From assembly GCA_949282215.1 (NCBI GenBank), contig CASDPF010000007.1, forward strand, positions 13,506 through 77,505: 64,000 bases of DNA, read 5' to 3'. This document shows positions 1,399-19,295 of this stretch, piece by piece. This DNA is from an uncultured bacterium. GTDB lineage: Bacteria > Cyanobacteriota > Vampirovibrionia > Gastranaerophilales > Gastranaerophilaceae. The position numbers were made by a program, and so were the translations under genes. Position 1 is the first letter of the stretch, and every line of letters starts with the position of its first letter. Under the pieces are notes generated by a model. The model did not search any database. It was not told the origin of the DNA and saw only the letters and a program-made list of their open reading frames with translations.

Positions 1399-2142
1399 TT
1401 ATTTACATTTATTATTTCCATTCCAGGATAATTGTTCCGGACACTTCAAATAATCAAGATTTTCTTTATATATAACCCAAGCAGTGCAACCATAACCATC
1501 ACTACCCGAAGCCTTACAGTCTTCCTCAAATGTTCTTGAGCCAATATCTCCTCCCATAGGTACAATCTTATTCTGATATACAAAGAAATAAAAAACATCC
1601 TTTCCTACTGTATTAGGTTTCTTATCTACACCATTAATATCAACAGCGAAATCCCCGCAGGAAATAGTTTGGGTACAATCTATCCTACTAAACCAACCTC
1701 CAATAAATATCGTACCATCTGCAAGTTTAATCTGAGTAGTTGAATGTTTACCTTCCCGAAGAGCACCCGATAATTCATACTGTTCAGGAATTAAGCAATT
1801 ATTACCTCTGTCATGACAAACTGAAATAGTTTTCATATAAGGAATTAATTTTGACCAAAATAACTCACTGTTATCGTAGACGATATCATCATGAAAACCG
1901 TTTTCATCTCTGTCAGAATTATTGATATTCCCTTCAAACCCCCAATTGTTTATTTCTCCGTTTTCATTTCGAGCCATCAGATAGGCCTGACTAATCGTAC
2001 TGTAGGCTTTCTTTAACTTGTTCACCGTAATTTTATCCTGATGTTTTTGTACAAGAGCAGGCAGTGTCATTGCAGCAACTATTCCGATTATTCCTAAAGT
2101 AACAAGTACTTCAGCTAACGTAAAAGCTTTTTTCTTTCTCAT
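1399..2142 (-). CDS. prepilin-type N-terminal cleavage/methylation domain protein (type IV pilin/pseudopilin-like)
   Basis: N-terminus MRKKKA|FTLAEVLVTLGIIGIVAAMTLPAL matches the class III signal (FTLxE plus hydrophobic helix). An SD GGAGG lies just upstream. Confidence 0.85.
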   Translation of the reverse strand: MRKKKAFTLAEVLVTLGIIGIVAAMTLPALVQKHQDKITVNKLKKAYSTISQAYLMARNENGEINNWGFEGNINNSDRDENGFHDDIVYDNSELFWSKLIPYMKTISVCHDRGNNCLIPEQYELSGALREGKHSTTQIKLADGTIFIGGWFSRIDCTQTISCGDFAVDINGVDKKPNTVGKDVFYFFVYQNKIVPMGGDIGSRTFEEDCKASGSDGYGCTAWVIYKENLDYLKCPEQLSWNGNNKCK

Positions 2143-12438: not shown

Positions 12439-13206
12439 TTACCAAGGATAATCCTCTTTCATTTGCCAACCGTCATAAATAAGTAATGCGGCGCAATAAC
12501 CTCCAGCATAAGCTGCATTGGAGCCCTTCTTACATTTATAGTTTGGCATATCAACAGTTTCCCCGCCTTCAATTAAATCATTGCGTTCTGGTAAAACTTT
12601 ACAATCAAGTCCTTTCGGATAAAAGCCTAACCTTCTTAAACAATCATCAGGTGAAATTTGTACTTTTGGGGCATTTCCCCAGCTCATAACAAATGGGAAA
12701 ATATCGTTTCCAAGCATATTTGGCTTTTTCATCGGGCCATTAACATCTATCCAAAACCAAGCTCCTGTACCACTAGCATGAGGCCAATAAAGAACAGAAT
12801 AACCTGATGCAGTCACAAATGCTCCATGACCGCTAATACCTGATGAATCAGGCACAAACACTTTATTGTCAAGTGTAAAAGTGTTTTCTGCCCAACATTC
12901 TGAACTTACCGGAATACATTTTTTTATAACTTTTATATATGGAAACAGAAAATTTTCACTAATATATAAAAGTCTATCCTCGCTAGACTCAAAATCAGAC
13001 AAATCCCAGCTGTCTAAAGTTCCATTATCTTTTTGAGCCAATAAAACAGCTTGATTAATTTCAGAATACGCTTTTTTTAATTGGTTAATAGTTTGTACTT
13101 TTTTGTATTTTCCAACAATGACGGGCATTGTCATTGCAGCTACTACACCGATGATACCAAGCGTTATAAGCACCTCTGCCAAAGTAAAAGCTTTTTTCTT
13201 TTTCAT
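12439..13206 (-). CDS. prepilin-type N-terminal cleavage/methylation domain protein
   Basis: Start moved to ATG 13206 (GGAGG upstream): MKKKKA|FTLAEVLITLGIIGVVAAMTMPV. The C-terminal DGWQMKEDYPW is shared with 55322..55990. Confidence 0.85.
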   Translation of the reverse strand: MKKKKAFTLAEVLITLGIIGVVAAMTMPVIVGKYKKVQTINQLKKAYSEINQAVLLAQKDNGTLDSWDLSDFESSEDRLLYISENFLFPYIKVIKKCIPVSSECWAENTFTLDNKVFVPDSSGISGHGAFVTASGYSVLYWPHASGTGAWFWIDVNGPMKKPNMLGNDIFPFVMSWGNAPKVQISPDDCLRRLGFYPKGLDCKVLPERNDLIEGGETVDMPNYKCKKGSNAAYAGGYCAALLIYDGWQMKEDYPW

Positions 13207-13340
13207 AAAACCTCCATTTGTTTTTATTACCTGTTTCTCAAAAATTTTGCAACACAAATTACCGTGTCACTTGGCACGGTTTATATCTCAGCTCTTTTCT
13301 TTACATCGGAGGTCTAAGTCGGAAATGCTTGATTTAACTG

Positions 13341-13391
13341 TTAGTTGGTAGCCCCCCCCCCCGAAATTCTATCTATCAGTGTTTTTTGCAT
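13341..13391 (-). CDS. leader uORF B, 16 codons (MQKTLIDRISGGGATN)
   Basis: AAGGAGG-N5-ATG. The G11 tract is read as GGG GGG GGG. It has the same C-terminal ISGGGAT[NY]-stop as uORF A. Confidence 0.45.
   Translation of the reverse strand: MQKTLIDRISGGGATN
13352..13362. repeat. C11/G11 homopolymer inside uORF B
   Basis: Counted directly: 11 consecutive C on the plus strand. Confidence 0.95.
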
Positions 13392-13467
13392 ATGGTCCTC
13401 CTTGTTTTTGTATATTAATATTATAAAGTATTTTTTTTATTATTTCAATACGTGCTATAATAATTTT

Positions 13468-17657: not shown

Positions 17658-18254
17658 TTATTGCATTGATTTATTTGAACTCAAATATTCTTTTTCTTTC
17701 ACACCGGTAACATACATTTTACCATCAGGCTGTATAAAAATTTCAAACCTGTCAGGACTGTGGCAATCCGTTGCAGAATAGCTGCAATTAGGCTTTCTGT
17801 CCCCATTTACATCAACAATTATACTTTTATCCGAATCAAAATCAGTATATGGCATATACCAACTAATACCATCAGTGGTAACAAAAGATGGTACATTTGA
17901 ATCTGTAGGGACTCTTGAACCTGCTACGCAGCTTATATTATTATTTATAGTGTTTACCTTTGCTGCAAATAATTTACAAAATTTATCACTGCCACTATAT
18001 AACTCATCATTGTATTCAACCTCACTGACATTATCTAATCCAACTGATGTTCCTTCTCCAATAGGATACAGCGTTTCATCGTTAACAAGCTCACTTACCA
18101 TCCTTTCTGCAACATAATATGCTTTTTTAAACAAAGCCTTATTTTCATTAGGACGTACTTTTGATACTGCAGGAAGTAATATTGAAGCCAATATACCAAG
18201 AATAGCCATCGTAATCATTACTTCTGCCAAAGTAAATGCTTTATTATTCCTCAT
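17658..18254 (-). CDS. prepilin-type N-terminal cleavage/methylation domain protein
   Basis: MRNNKA|FTLAEVMITMAILGILASILLPAV. Confidence 0.85.
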   Translation of the reverse strand: MRNNKAFTLAEVMITMAILGILASILLPAVSKVRPNENKALFKKAYYVAERMVSELVNDETLYPIGEGTSVGLDNVSEVEYNDELYSGSDKFCKLFAAKVNTINNNISCVAGSRVPTDSNVPSFVTTDGISWYMPYTDFDSDKSIIVDVNGDRKPNCSYSATDCHSPDRFEIFIQPDGKMYVTGVKEKEYLSSNKSMQ

Positions 18255-18407: not shown

Positions 18408-19295
18408 ATGAATAAAAAAGGAATGACTTTAGCTGAAGTTTTATTTGTTTTCATAATCATAGGTATTATTGCCGCAATAGCTATTATTACGGTAAAGCCT
18501 TGGGATAAAGCTTGTAAATATGCATATTCAAGAATTTATCATTCACTTAGACTTGCCTTTTACAACGCAATGTTAACGCAACCGGAATTTCCGACAACAT
18601 CAACGCAATTTTGCAATCTTTTAGTTGAATATATTAACACTTCTACAGACGGTGCAAATTGTACCCAATCAAGAGATTTAACAAATAATCCGAGAATTTT
18701 TCCTGATGAAAAAATTCAAATACAAGCATCAAATTCTTCAAAAATTTGGATTGGTGCAAATAGCGGACAACCGTTTGTGCATACAGAAACAGAATCCAGT
18801 GGAGCAATTTCCAAAACAAAATATTACCTTGTATATGTTGACTTAAATGGTAACAGGGGGCCTAATTCACCAAAGTGGGAAGAAAACAGATTATCTGATA
18901 TTGTAGCTTTTGCTGTAACAGATGGACTGACAGTTCTTCCATTAGGTCATCCCGAAGTTGACAACAGATATTTAAATGCCCATGTCGTATATCCTCAGAT
19001 AAATGAAGACAATCCTGACGGAAATATCTCTGATGACATGACTTATTATGAAGCTAAAAAGAAAGCTTGGGGTAACAATGTTGACAGTTCAGACTCAATG
19101 TCTTTAAATTTTCAAAATGATCTGCCTAATGATAGCTACTTTAAACTAACAACAACGGGCAGTGTAAATAGCCCGTATTATCCTGATGCAGACAGCTATA
19201 GTGACTTTTTCCCTGTTCCTATAGGAGCTGACACTGCAAATGGTTGTAAAGAAGTAAGCTCACCTTGTTATGTAGATATTTTCGAATACCACTAG
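18408..19295 (+). CDS. prepilin-type N-terminal cleavage/methylation domain protein
   Basis: MNKKG|MTLAEVLFVFIIIGIIAAIAIITV. Confidence 0.8.
   Translation: MNKKGMTLAEVLFVFIIIGIIAAIAIITVKPWDKACKYAYSRIYHSLRLAFYNAMLTQPEFPTTSTQFCNLLVEYINTSTDGANCTQSRDLTNNPRIFPDEKIQIQASNSSKIWIGANSGQPFVHTETESSGAISKTKYYLVYVDLNGNRGPNSPKWEENRLSDIVAFAVTDGLTVLPLGHPEVDNRYLNAHVVYPQINEDNPDGNISDDMTYYEAKKKAWGNNVDSSDSMSLNFQNDLPNDSYFKLTTTGSVNSPYYPDADSYSDFFPVPIGADTANGCKEVSSPCYVDIFEYH

Follow-up and report, generated by a model that had tools for sequence, protein, structure and literature searches.

What is a run of eleven guanines doing in the leader of a pilin gene, inside a short upstream open reading frame (uORF) that is separate from the gene it precedes? 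The question is raised by two leaders, here called A and B, that lie on the minus strand of a 64-kb window (the whole stretch of DNA analysed). At the 32% G+C of this window, runs of nine or more guanines are expected 0.03 times and two were observed; both are G11 tracts on the minus strand, one in each leader, and they are the only such runs in the 64 kb. The hairpin pattern of the leaders is likewise expected 0.03 times in the window and was found in the two leaders only. Searching with nhmmer returned exactly two copies of the whole architecture and no third, in agreement with the original prediction that leader B is the second copy of one build, and three other prepilin-like genes in the window stand without such a leader. 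When the window was compared with Rfam 15 at the gathering threshold, only two tRNAs and no family for the leader were obtained, and the sole Rfam 15 match of the leader at E ≤ 10 was CrcZ, which at 7 bits is a chance match.

Anatomy and conservation of the leaders

Read on the minus strand, leader B begins with a promoter-like site, TTGAAA-N17-TATAAT (13420–13448), which with 11 of 12 matches outranks any other promoter-like site of the region. The Shine-Dalgarno sequence (SD) AAGGAGG (13397–13403) follows and is separated by N5 from the ATG of uORF B (13341–13391, minus strand), which encodes MQKTLIDRISGGGATN-stop in 16 codons plus the stop and contains the G11 homopolymeric tract (13352–13362, minus strand), the presumed slippage site, with polymorphism in homologous loci. 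Downstream on the same strand come a C/U-rich segment, AGCAUUUCCGACUU (13316–13329), predicted from the RNAalifold consensus to be the partner of the G tract in a helix P1, and the anti-SD, AGACCUCCG (13307–13315, with CCUCCG at 13312–13307), as delimited by folds and duplex energies. The CCUCCG block lies about 95 nt upstream of the pilin SD, and between the two stands a 6-bp hairpin, ACCGUG-N8-CACGGU (13261–13280, with the core CCGUG-N8-CACGG at 13279–13262), followed on its 3′ side by a U-rich tail (13251–13260). The leader closes with the SD UGGAGG (13216–13211) and the start codon (13206–13204) of the pilin gene, which together occupy 13204–13216. Every element that the original prediction had listed for leader B was recovered at the position given for it in the minus-strand reading.

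Leader A repeats this order on the minus strand: a promoter-like site, TTGATA-N17-TAAAAT with TG before the −10 (2357–2385); uORF A (2279–2332), which encodes MMKNLCISLISGGGATY-stop and contains G11 at 2290–2300; the anti-SD UCUCCGAUUAAA (2239–2250), which pairs with its own SD region over 12 bp; the hairpin GCCGUG-N8-CACGGU (2197–2216); and the pilin SD region UUUAAUCGGAGG (2158–2147) with the start codon at 2142–2140, together 2140–2158. In an alignment of the two leaders (A1, with leader A taken from about 2385 to 2140), the blocks said to be common to both were indeed present. In both, the uORF is 16–17 codons long and separate from the pilin gene, about 145 nt upstream of it.

The genes behind the leaders, A of 247 aa (1399–2142, minus strand) and B of 255 aa (12439–13206, minus strand; an N_methyl motif and DUF6613), are of prepilin type, each having an N-terminal cleavage/methylation motif followed by a hydrophobic helix. 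They scored 28 and 29.5 bits with PF07963 (cut-off 21.2) and 22.2 and 23.2 bits with TIGR02532 (cut-off 16.3); DUF6613 was taken for both from precomputed annotation, and among the equivalog models none reached its cut-off. Their homologues number in the thousands and are nearly all unnamed, the few named ones coming from Gastranaerophilaceae or Melainabacteria MAGs. The prepilin-type family is large, with several copies per genome and poly-G tracts at the 5′ ends, and in the low-GC related loci examined every run of at least eight guanines marked the 5′ end of a DUF6613 pilin gene. Homologues are often annotated with odd N-terminal extensions containing GGG or GGGG, and gene callers get many such pilin genes wrong, placing the start internally or adding a spurious N-terminal extension.

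Through pattern scans and exact-protein look-ups, ten distinct homologous leaders were assembled from at least three genomes or metagenomes, all located 5′ of prepilin-type (PF07963/DUF6613) genes of Gastranaerophilales. Beyond A and B, five were found in the MAG ‘Candidatus Gastranaerophilales bacterium BRZ_P__bin23’ (L067, with two, L086, L091 and L093) and two on metagenome contigs (L114 and L115); strain variants of leader B (L116) and leader A (L123) and many identical copies from independent samples were also collected. Scanning genome contigs with the hairpin pattern gave mostly chance matches in GC-rich genomes, with at least four real loci among the matches listed, all in one MAG; a scan of metagenomes gave two loci, and one of viral sequences none.

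Common to all ten leaders are the promoter, the uORF with its SD, the G tract with a stop 8 nt past it, CCUCCG, the 6-bp hairpin and the pilin SD. In an alignment of the ten distinct sequences (A2, about 213 nt), in which the uORF SD AAGGAGG is also kept, the invariant or nearly invariant parts are the uORF ATG, AUUUC-Gn-CUACC.ACUA(A/G), AAGC, CUCCGA, CCGUGCCA...GACACGGU followed by UUU, and the pilin GGAGG-ATG. CUCCGA is unchanged in 10/10 leaders and is among the most conserved blocks, and the hairpin has an invariant stem and a variable loop. Whatever the leader type, the best promoter-like site, which is the sole one conserved in position, precedes the uORF; further hexamers resembling a promoter are present downstream of the tract. 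Retained block by block in ten distinct homologues, the leader architecture is, as judged by comparison, a conserved unit and not a chance pair.

Conservation is lowest in the body of the uORF, yet this contains no in-frame stops and no uncompensated indels. That conservation would concern the end with the G tract and the stop codon, not the body of the peptide, had been anticipated, and the alignment agrees: the body varies, whereas all ten leaders have the start, the frame and the stop position in common. One of the two L067 leaders (L067a) has UAG instead of UAA at the uORF stop, and L115 combines a G9 tract with a 1-nt deletion upstream of it, by which the same uORF frame is restored. The uORF thus appears from these comparisons to be translated, since start and frame are kept despite the variable body, the change of UAA to UAG keeps the stop, and the G9 is compensated.

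Predicted masking of the pilin SD and reading frames of the uORF

A long-range helix between the anti-SD and the pilin SD was present in both the MFE and the centroid folds, formed by AGACCUCCG/UGGAGGUUU in leader B and by UCUCCGAUUAAA/UUUAAUCGGAGG in leader A. The RNAalifold consensus contained three helices, namely the G tract with AGC.UUUCC..CUU, which encloses the uORF stop in its loop, CCUCCG with CGGAGG, and the 6-bp hairpin. The pilin SD was predicted to be at least 88% paired, with an unpaired probability of at most 0.12, and its masking exceeded that of most shuffled leaders: shuffled sequences masked the SD as well or better in 0/200 cases for B, 0/200 for L115 and 3/200 for L086, so that masking stood above the shuffles at ≤0.015 in three of five leaders. 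In every leader, the duplex of the anti-SD with its own pilin SD was better than that with the uORF SD.

The original prediction had staked the pairing on complementarity between the CUCCG block and the downstream SD in further homologous leaders, and such complementarity is found in 10/10 (−10.7 to −15.4 kcal/mol). It had further held that each anti-SD matches the SD of its own gene. Plain complementarity holds for both leaders, whereas specificity holds for A and fails for B: in a cross-duplex matrix, anti-SD A reached −15.4 kcal/mol with its own SD versus about −9 with other SDs, and anti-SD B bound the SD of A at least as well as its own. Among the leaders, specificity for the own SD is confined to A, where the helix runs over 12 contiguous pairs. 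Statistical covariation of anti-SD and SD, proposed as a check on the pairing, was not detected, cognate pairs averaging −13.5 to −13.6 and non-cognate pairs −12.9 kcal/mol (permutation p=0.084), and RNAalifold counted no compensatory pairs in any helix; in helix P1 the G-C/G-U changes are one-sided only.

The leader hairpin, with 6 bp, a free energy of −7.3 to −7.6 kcal/mol, −7.3 being that of leader B, and an interrupted tail of 4–5 U in 9 nt, was flagged as terminator-like in both leaders, and a search for an antiterminator partner found none. A two-tetrad G-quadruplex (G11 as 4 × 2 + 3) was considered for the tract and dropped, because tracts of G8, G9, G10, G12 and G13 occur at homologous positions. 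A direct effect of tract length on SD masking was also ruled out at the level of prediction, the SD unpaired probability being flat from G7 to G14. As masking is predicted to be constant over tract length, the tract, if it matters, would act through the reading frame.

The frames were therefore compared in the ten leaders of the type seen in the window, in which the pilin gene starts from an SD and ATG of its own and the tract is part of a separate uORF. In the observed frame, the first stop comes at +8 after the tract in 10/10 leaders; with one G fewer it comes at +15 (+30 in A), and with one G more not until +61 to +133. Only the frame with one additional G (+1G) crosses the anti-SD, at +40, which it does in all ten leaders, and it ends at most 11 nt before the hairpin or beyond it. 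In the B group, 50 to 85 nt separate its stop from the pilin AUG downstream; in leader A, the stop (UAA) falls inside the pilin SD region, 11 nt before the pilin ATG. A change in the length of G11 hence alters the stop position of the uORF, which is the placement of the repeat that characterizes an SSR phase-variable locus.

Tract states in related pilin loci

Assembled tracts of window-type leaders are highly uniform: G11 was found in 11/11 assemblies at locus A, 4/4 at locus B, 5/5 for the loci of the BRZ MAG and in the single observation of L114, and at the L115-type locus three assemblies had G9 and two G8. Both G8 tracts adjoin a contig or scaffold break. In total, the 26 observations comprise 24 in the observed frame, two in the frame with one G fewer and none in the +1G frame, and at loci A and B no tract polymorphism was seen in 15/15 assemblies. 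As far as such uniformity can be read, the G11 frame is under selection, either as the OFF or as the ON state, because neutral slippage would not give it.

The +1G state was nevertheless met at the protein level. When the +1G uORF products predicted for six leaders, A and B among them, were looked up exactly among 15 billion proteins, none was returned, whereas a profile of these predicted products retrieved two called ORFs that start from the uORF ATG and carry four Gly, P0355 (MQKAHIDRISGGGGCQLAVRVSISDLDLR...KPCQKTR) and P0356. Both cross the anti-SD in the read-through frame, DLDLR being the translation of GACUUAGACCUCCGA, and P0355 also reads through the hairpin (KPCQKTR). They would represent natural G12 (+1G) states of two further window-type leaders; among 1.8 billion representative proteins, no further read-through products were found. 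To judge by these ORFs, the +1G state exists and is rare in consensus assemblies.

Variation was also found in relatives of a fusion type, in which the same promoter-SD-ATG-Gn module is joined directly to a pilin ORF without a start of its own; the 5′ module of L151/L152 aligns to the window-type leader by nhmmer. The syntenic orthologue of pilin B at L120/L121 lacks a pilin SD and ATG and has a G11 that puts it out of frame behind SD-ATG-MSKSLTTVVF-Gn, while P0122, from the L120 protein cluster, is an exact in-frame fusion, MSKSLTTVVFGGGGAGLL...AFTLAE, which implies G13. L119 (G12) and L122 (G10) have the same build as L120 and are out of frame, as most fusion-type relatives are; in frame are L149/L150 (G12) and L151/L152 (G11). 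In L148 the tract carries a synonymous G-to-C interruption, GGGGGGGCGGGG, which would lock the gene on. A tract is altogether lacking in L131, a third syntenic orthologue.

Differences were also recorded between assemblies of a single locus. At the P0182 locus, where eight assemblies share an identical 254-aa pilin, the first tract reads G12 (in four, and in 14 similar sequences), G9, G5AG (in two) or G4CG6, and the second tract, at the next pilin gene, reads G12 (in four), G13 (in one) or G11 (in three); in the short allele of this second pilin, G13 is in frame and G11 out of frame. The P0182 leader also has a perfect TTGCAT-N17-TATAAT downstream of the tract. The variation within the family, with in-frame, out-of-frame and locked forms, carries the signature of contingency loci. 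To go by the sequences, the G11 tract of the window is a hypermutable homopolymer of a family-wide poly-G system at pilin 5′ ends, an aspect that the original prediction overlooked.

A proposed frame switch, its alternatives and known systems

We propose that the leader is a poly-G contingency switch in which slipped-strand phase variation, acting via the uORF frame, unmasks the pilin SD; in our estimate this proposal has an even chance of being right. From the strong promoter, one transcript with the uORF and the pilin gene would be made, on which the pilin SD would be sequestered by the CCUCCG some 95 nt upstream, with the weak terminator-like hairpin between them. Ribosomes would load efficiently on the uORF. 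With G11 they would stop 8 nt past the tract, and with one G fewer 15 to 30 nt past it, in both cases (G11 or G10) well upstream of the anti-SD, so that the pilin would be off or low. With one G more or two fewer (G12 or G9), the uORF would stay open through the anti-SD to at most 11 nt before the hairpin, or beyond, and translating ribosomes could then melt the masking helix, and with it the hairpin, whereupon the pilin start would be used. Slipped-strand mispairing, by altering the tract length, would turn individual pilin paralogues on and off heritably and reversibly. The mutability of the tract would thereby give the uORF a concrete role, its frame deciding whether ribosomes reach the anti-SD. 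The frame geometry is observed in the leaders, the masking is modelled, and the unmasking by read-through, the assignment of G11 to the OFF state and the switching itself are what we infer from them. Against the proposal weigh the lack of a +1G frame among the 26 assembled observations, the failure to find exact +1G products, the distance that remains between the +1G stop and the pilin AUG in the B group, the lack of compensatory changes in the helices and the promoter-like hexamers 3′ of the tract. The main point that the proposed switch leaves unexplained is the uniformity of G11 at A and B, which fits either strong selection or a slippage site of fixed length.

The latter could be a programmed site at which RNA polymerase slips, or at which the ribosome shifts by −1 on G GGG GGG, so that a set and perhaps regulated fraction of uORF translation reads through and the pilin is tuned in each cell rather than switched heritably. 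Such a site would account for the invariant G11 at A (11/11), B (4/4), the five BRZ loci and L114; the read-through frame is that of a −1 ribosomal shift, for which a run of 11 G permits perfect re-pairing, and the three out-of-frame fusion-type relatives need the same shift direction despite having G10, G11 and G12. That direction is, however, +1 in the fusion-type relatives and −1 in the window type, sibling loci show changes of tract length in the DNA itself, in-frame and locked variants among them, P0355 and P0356 point to genomic G12 states, and no recognised frameshift stimulator was identified, which together make programmed slippage unlikely. Somewhat less probable still is attenuation in cis by the leader RNA, with the G tract pairing with UUUCC...CCUCC as an anti-anti-SD and translation of, or stalling on, GGG-GGG-GGG freeing the anti-SD to mask or unmask the pilin SD; control would then respond to translation as in ermC or pyrG, and the mutability of the tract would be incidental. 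Consistent with an attenuator, the consensus fold pairs the tract with AGC.UUUCC..CUU around the uORF stop, duplexes of the G tract with the anti-SD (−12.8 to −17.1 kcal/mol) are as stable as those of the anti-SD with the SD, the stop position directly 3′ of the tract is conserved, and the block after the tract matches variant upstream SDs, GGAGAG/CUCUCC in L120 and GAGAGG/CCUCUC in L122; pairing of poly-G with C/U-rich RNA also has precedents in Helicobacter pylori tlpB/RepG and Bacillus subtilis pyrG, both compared below. Against it, the tract helix and the anti-SD:SD helix are predicted to coexist at equilibrium with masking unchanged from G7 to G14, and an attenuator gives no reason for a +1G frame that is open in 10/10 leaders and leaves the fusion-type relatives, which have no second SD, unexplained.

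Control might instead be transcriptional, with CCGTG-N8-CACGG acting as the operator of a dimeric regulator over the −35-like xxGACA of a second promoter, or as an intrinsic terminator; the complementarity of CCUCCG and SD would then be irrelevant, since no functional transcript would contain the two together. In both leaders the hairpin is classed as terminator-like, the GACA is invariant and in A belongs to TTGACA-N16-AAAAAT with 10 of 12 matches, and HTH genes adjoin some related pilin genes. As a terminator, however, the hairpin is weak given its stem, energy and interrupted U tail, the downstream −10 is poor in B and was not called there, and the best promoter, the only position-conserved one, lies upstream of the uORF in every leader type; with CUCCGA, moreover, among the most conserved blocks, we hold transcriptional control to be very improbable. 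Hardly any weight can be given to the view that the leader is an evolutionary relic, a decayed fusion-type switch that gained an SD and ATG and in which uORF, tract and open frame are functionless leftovers. The syntenic orthologues do include window-type, fusion-type (L120) and tract-free (L131) forms, as a relic would lead one to expect, but a hypermutable G11 free of selection would not be uniform over 21 assemblies of two or more species, and the stop, the frame, the anti-SD and the hairpin are all conserved.

If the proposed frame switch operates, it would follow a wiring from repeat to expression that is new, in which the repeat sets the uORF frame and the frame sets the unmasking of the SD, and the mature pilin and its signal peptide would stay untouched by switching. 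More tentatively, and with rather more doubt than confidence, we suggest that it is a kind of switch not described before: a poly-G tract in a uORF of which one frame crosses an anti-SD and hairpin, installed in parallel on several paralogues per genome in gut Melainabacteria, from which no SSR phase variation is known to have been reported. Neither phase variation of pilins in Melainabacteria or Gastranaerophilales nor a poly-G uORF switch was found described in the searchable literature. Gastranaerophilales are common gut bacteria and uncultured, and to our knowledge almost nothing is known of how their surface structures are regulated; contingency loci have so far come mainly from pathogens.

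Phase variation by homopolymeric tracts is familiar from the poly-G in the signal-peptide region of Neisseria pilC and from the poly-G contingency genes of Campylobacter jejuni. The present loci are like these in having a long G run at the 5′ end of a surface-filament gene, with many paralogous loci per genome, and, among relatives, in tract lengths that differ from isolate to isolate and include forms in frame, out of frame or interrupted. They are unlike them in that the tract of A and B lies in a separate uORF and the gene has its own SD and ATG, predicted to be masked by the anti-SD; the host, too, is a non-photosynthetic relative of cyanobacteria and a gut commensal, not a classical pathogen. 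Attenuation by leader peptides and translational coupling through SD unmasking are known from the ermC, cat and cmlA leaders and from the coat-replicase arrangement of phage MS2. With these the proposed switch would share a short uORF with a strong SD, a downstream SD sequestered by an upstream complement, and the decisive position of the ribosome; the input here would be a heritable frame change by DNA slippage in place of stalling by a drug or metabolite, and no stalling motif was identified. In B. subtilis pyrG, poly-G produced by reiterative transcription pairs with the pyrimidine-rich strand of a terminator. Here too poly-G RNA is predicted to pair with a C/U-rich segment in a hairpin-bearing leader; the G run, however, comes from the DNA itself and sits inside a uORF, 110 nt into the transcript, and the C/U-rich segment lies outside the hairpin.

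In the H. pylori tlpB mRNA leader, a variable G-repeat is targeted by the C/U-rich sRNA RepG (PMC8295292). A hypermutable G run in the leader, a C/U-rich pairing partner and post-transcriptional control, the last as proposed, would be common to both cases. The partner in the present leaders, by contrast, lies in cis together with the anti-SD, and the tract is inside a uORF; with masking predicted to be independent of tract length, the effect of length would follow the frame with a period of three and would not be graded. What distinguishes the leaders described here from the known cases is that the repeat resides in a separate uORF, and not in the gene or its promoter.

Pilin genes lacking a tract and promoter-like sites downstream of one

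The syntenic orthologue of pilin B in the homologous locus L131 (2068–2500), which shares 63% amino acid identity with it, lacks all three of the uORF, the G tract and the hairpin; its SD is a direct one, and upstream of the gene lies an inserted HTH_3/XRE-type gene. An HTH gene also adjoins a DUF6613 (prepilin-type) gene in L119. Within the window, neither a G tract nor an A/B-like leader was found at three further prepilin-type genes, located at 17658–18254 (minus strand), 18408–19295 (plus strand) and about 55334 (plus strand), two of which are divergent, lie 153 nt apart and adjoin tRNA-Ser.

Promoter-like sites were also observed downstream of the tract. A perfect TTGCAT-N17-TATAAT lies inside the leader of P0182, a 254-aa pilin (L132–L138, about 540–575), and TTGACA-N16-AAAAAT occurs in leader A (window 2206–2179, minus strand), with its −35 element falling within the hairpin.

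Tract interruption and assembly breaks

In L148 (623–634), a synonymous G-to-C change splits the poly-G tract (GGGGGGGCGGGG) of an in-frame pilin leader peptide. The interrupted tract resembles a locked-ON allele of the G12 present in L149 and L150. Several contigs or scaffolds break shortly before they reach the G tract, at distances of 4 to 30 nt on its upstream side; these are the contig starts of L114, L141 and L143 and a scaffold gap in L142, with L121 also belonging to this set; such breaks are consistent with either tract heterogeneity or poor poly-G sequencing in those samples.

Allelic variation and the pilin N-terminal coding region

Comparison of the second DUF6613 gene downstream of P0182 among L132–L139 revealed an allele-variable region at about 1530–1760, where a relatively GC-rich insertion of ~160 nt separates the poly-G leader from the pilin N-terminus in some alleles and is lacking in L136 and L139. 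The initial ~70 nt of the pilin coding sequence are also replaced between alleles.

Among the homologous pilins, the ‘AFTLAE’ motif is doubled in many called ORFs (P0018, P0029, P0055, P0057, P0156, P0161, P0247, P0261, P0348 and others among them), or, in an alternative form within the same ORF set, gives way to non-hydrophobic text (GATHVA, for example) before a second AFTLAEVLITLG appears. These arrangements suggest that the conserved N-terminal coding region of these pilin genes has acquired duplicated or inserted segments or has undergone recombination.

Anti-SD-like blocks in fusion-type leaders

In fusion-type leaders, in which the promoter-SD-ATG-Gn module is fused to a pilin ORF without its own start, the upstream start carries a variant SD that is complementary to a block immediately 3′ of the G tract (L120 2466–2540, L122 10–140 and L119 2470–2545). 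The SD/block pairs are GGAGAG/CUCUCC, GAGAGG/CCUCUC and GGAGG/CCUCC, and for L120 and L122 the best duplex between SD and post-tract block is the cognate one. Because the post-tract blocks are complementary to the variant upstream SDs, the anti-SD idea may extend to the 5′ SD of fusion-type leaders.
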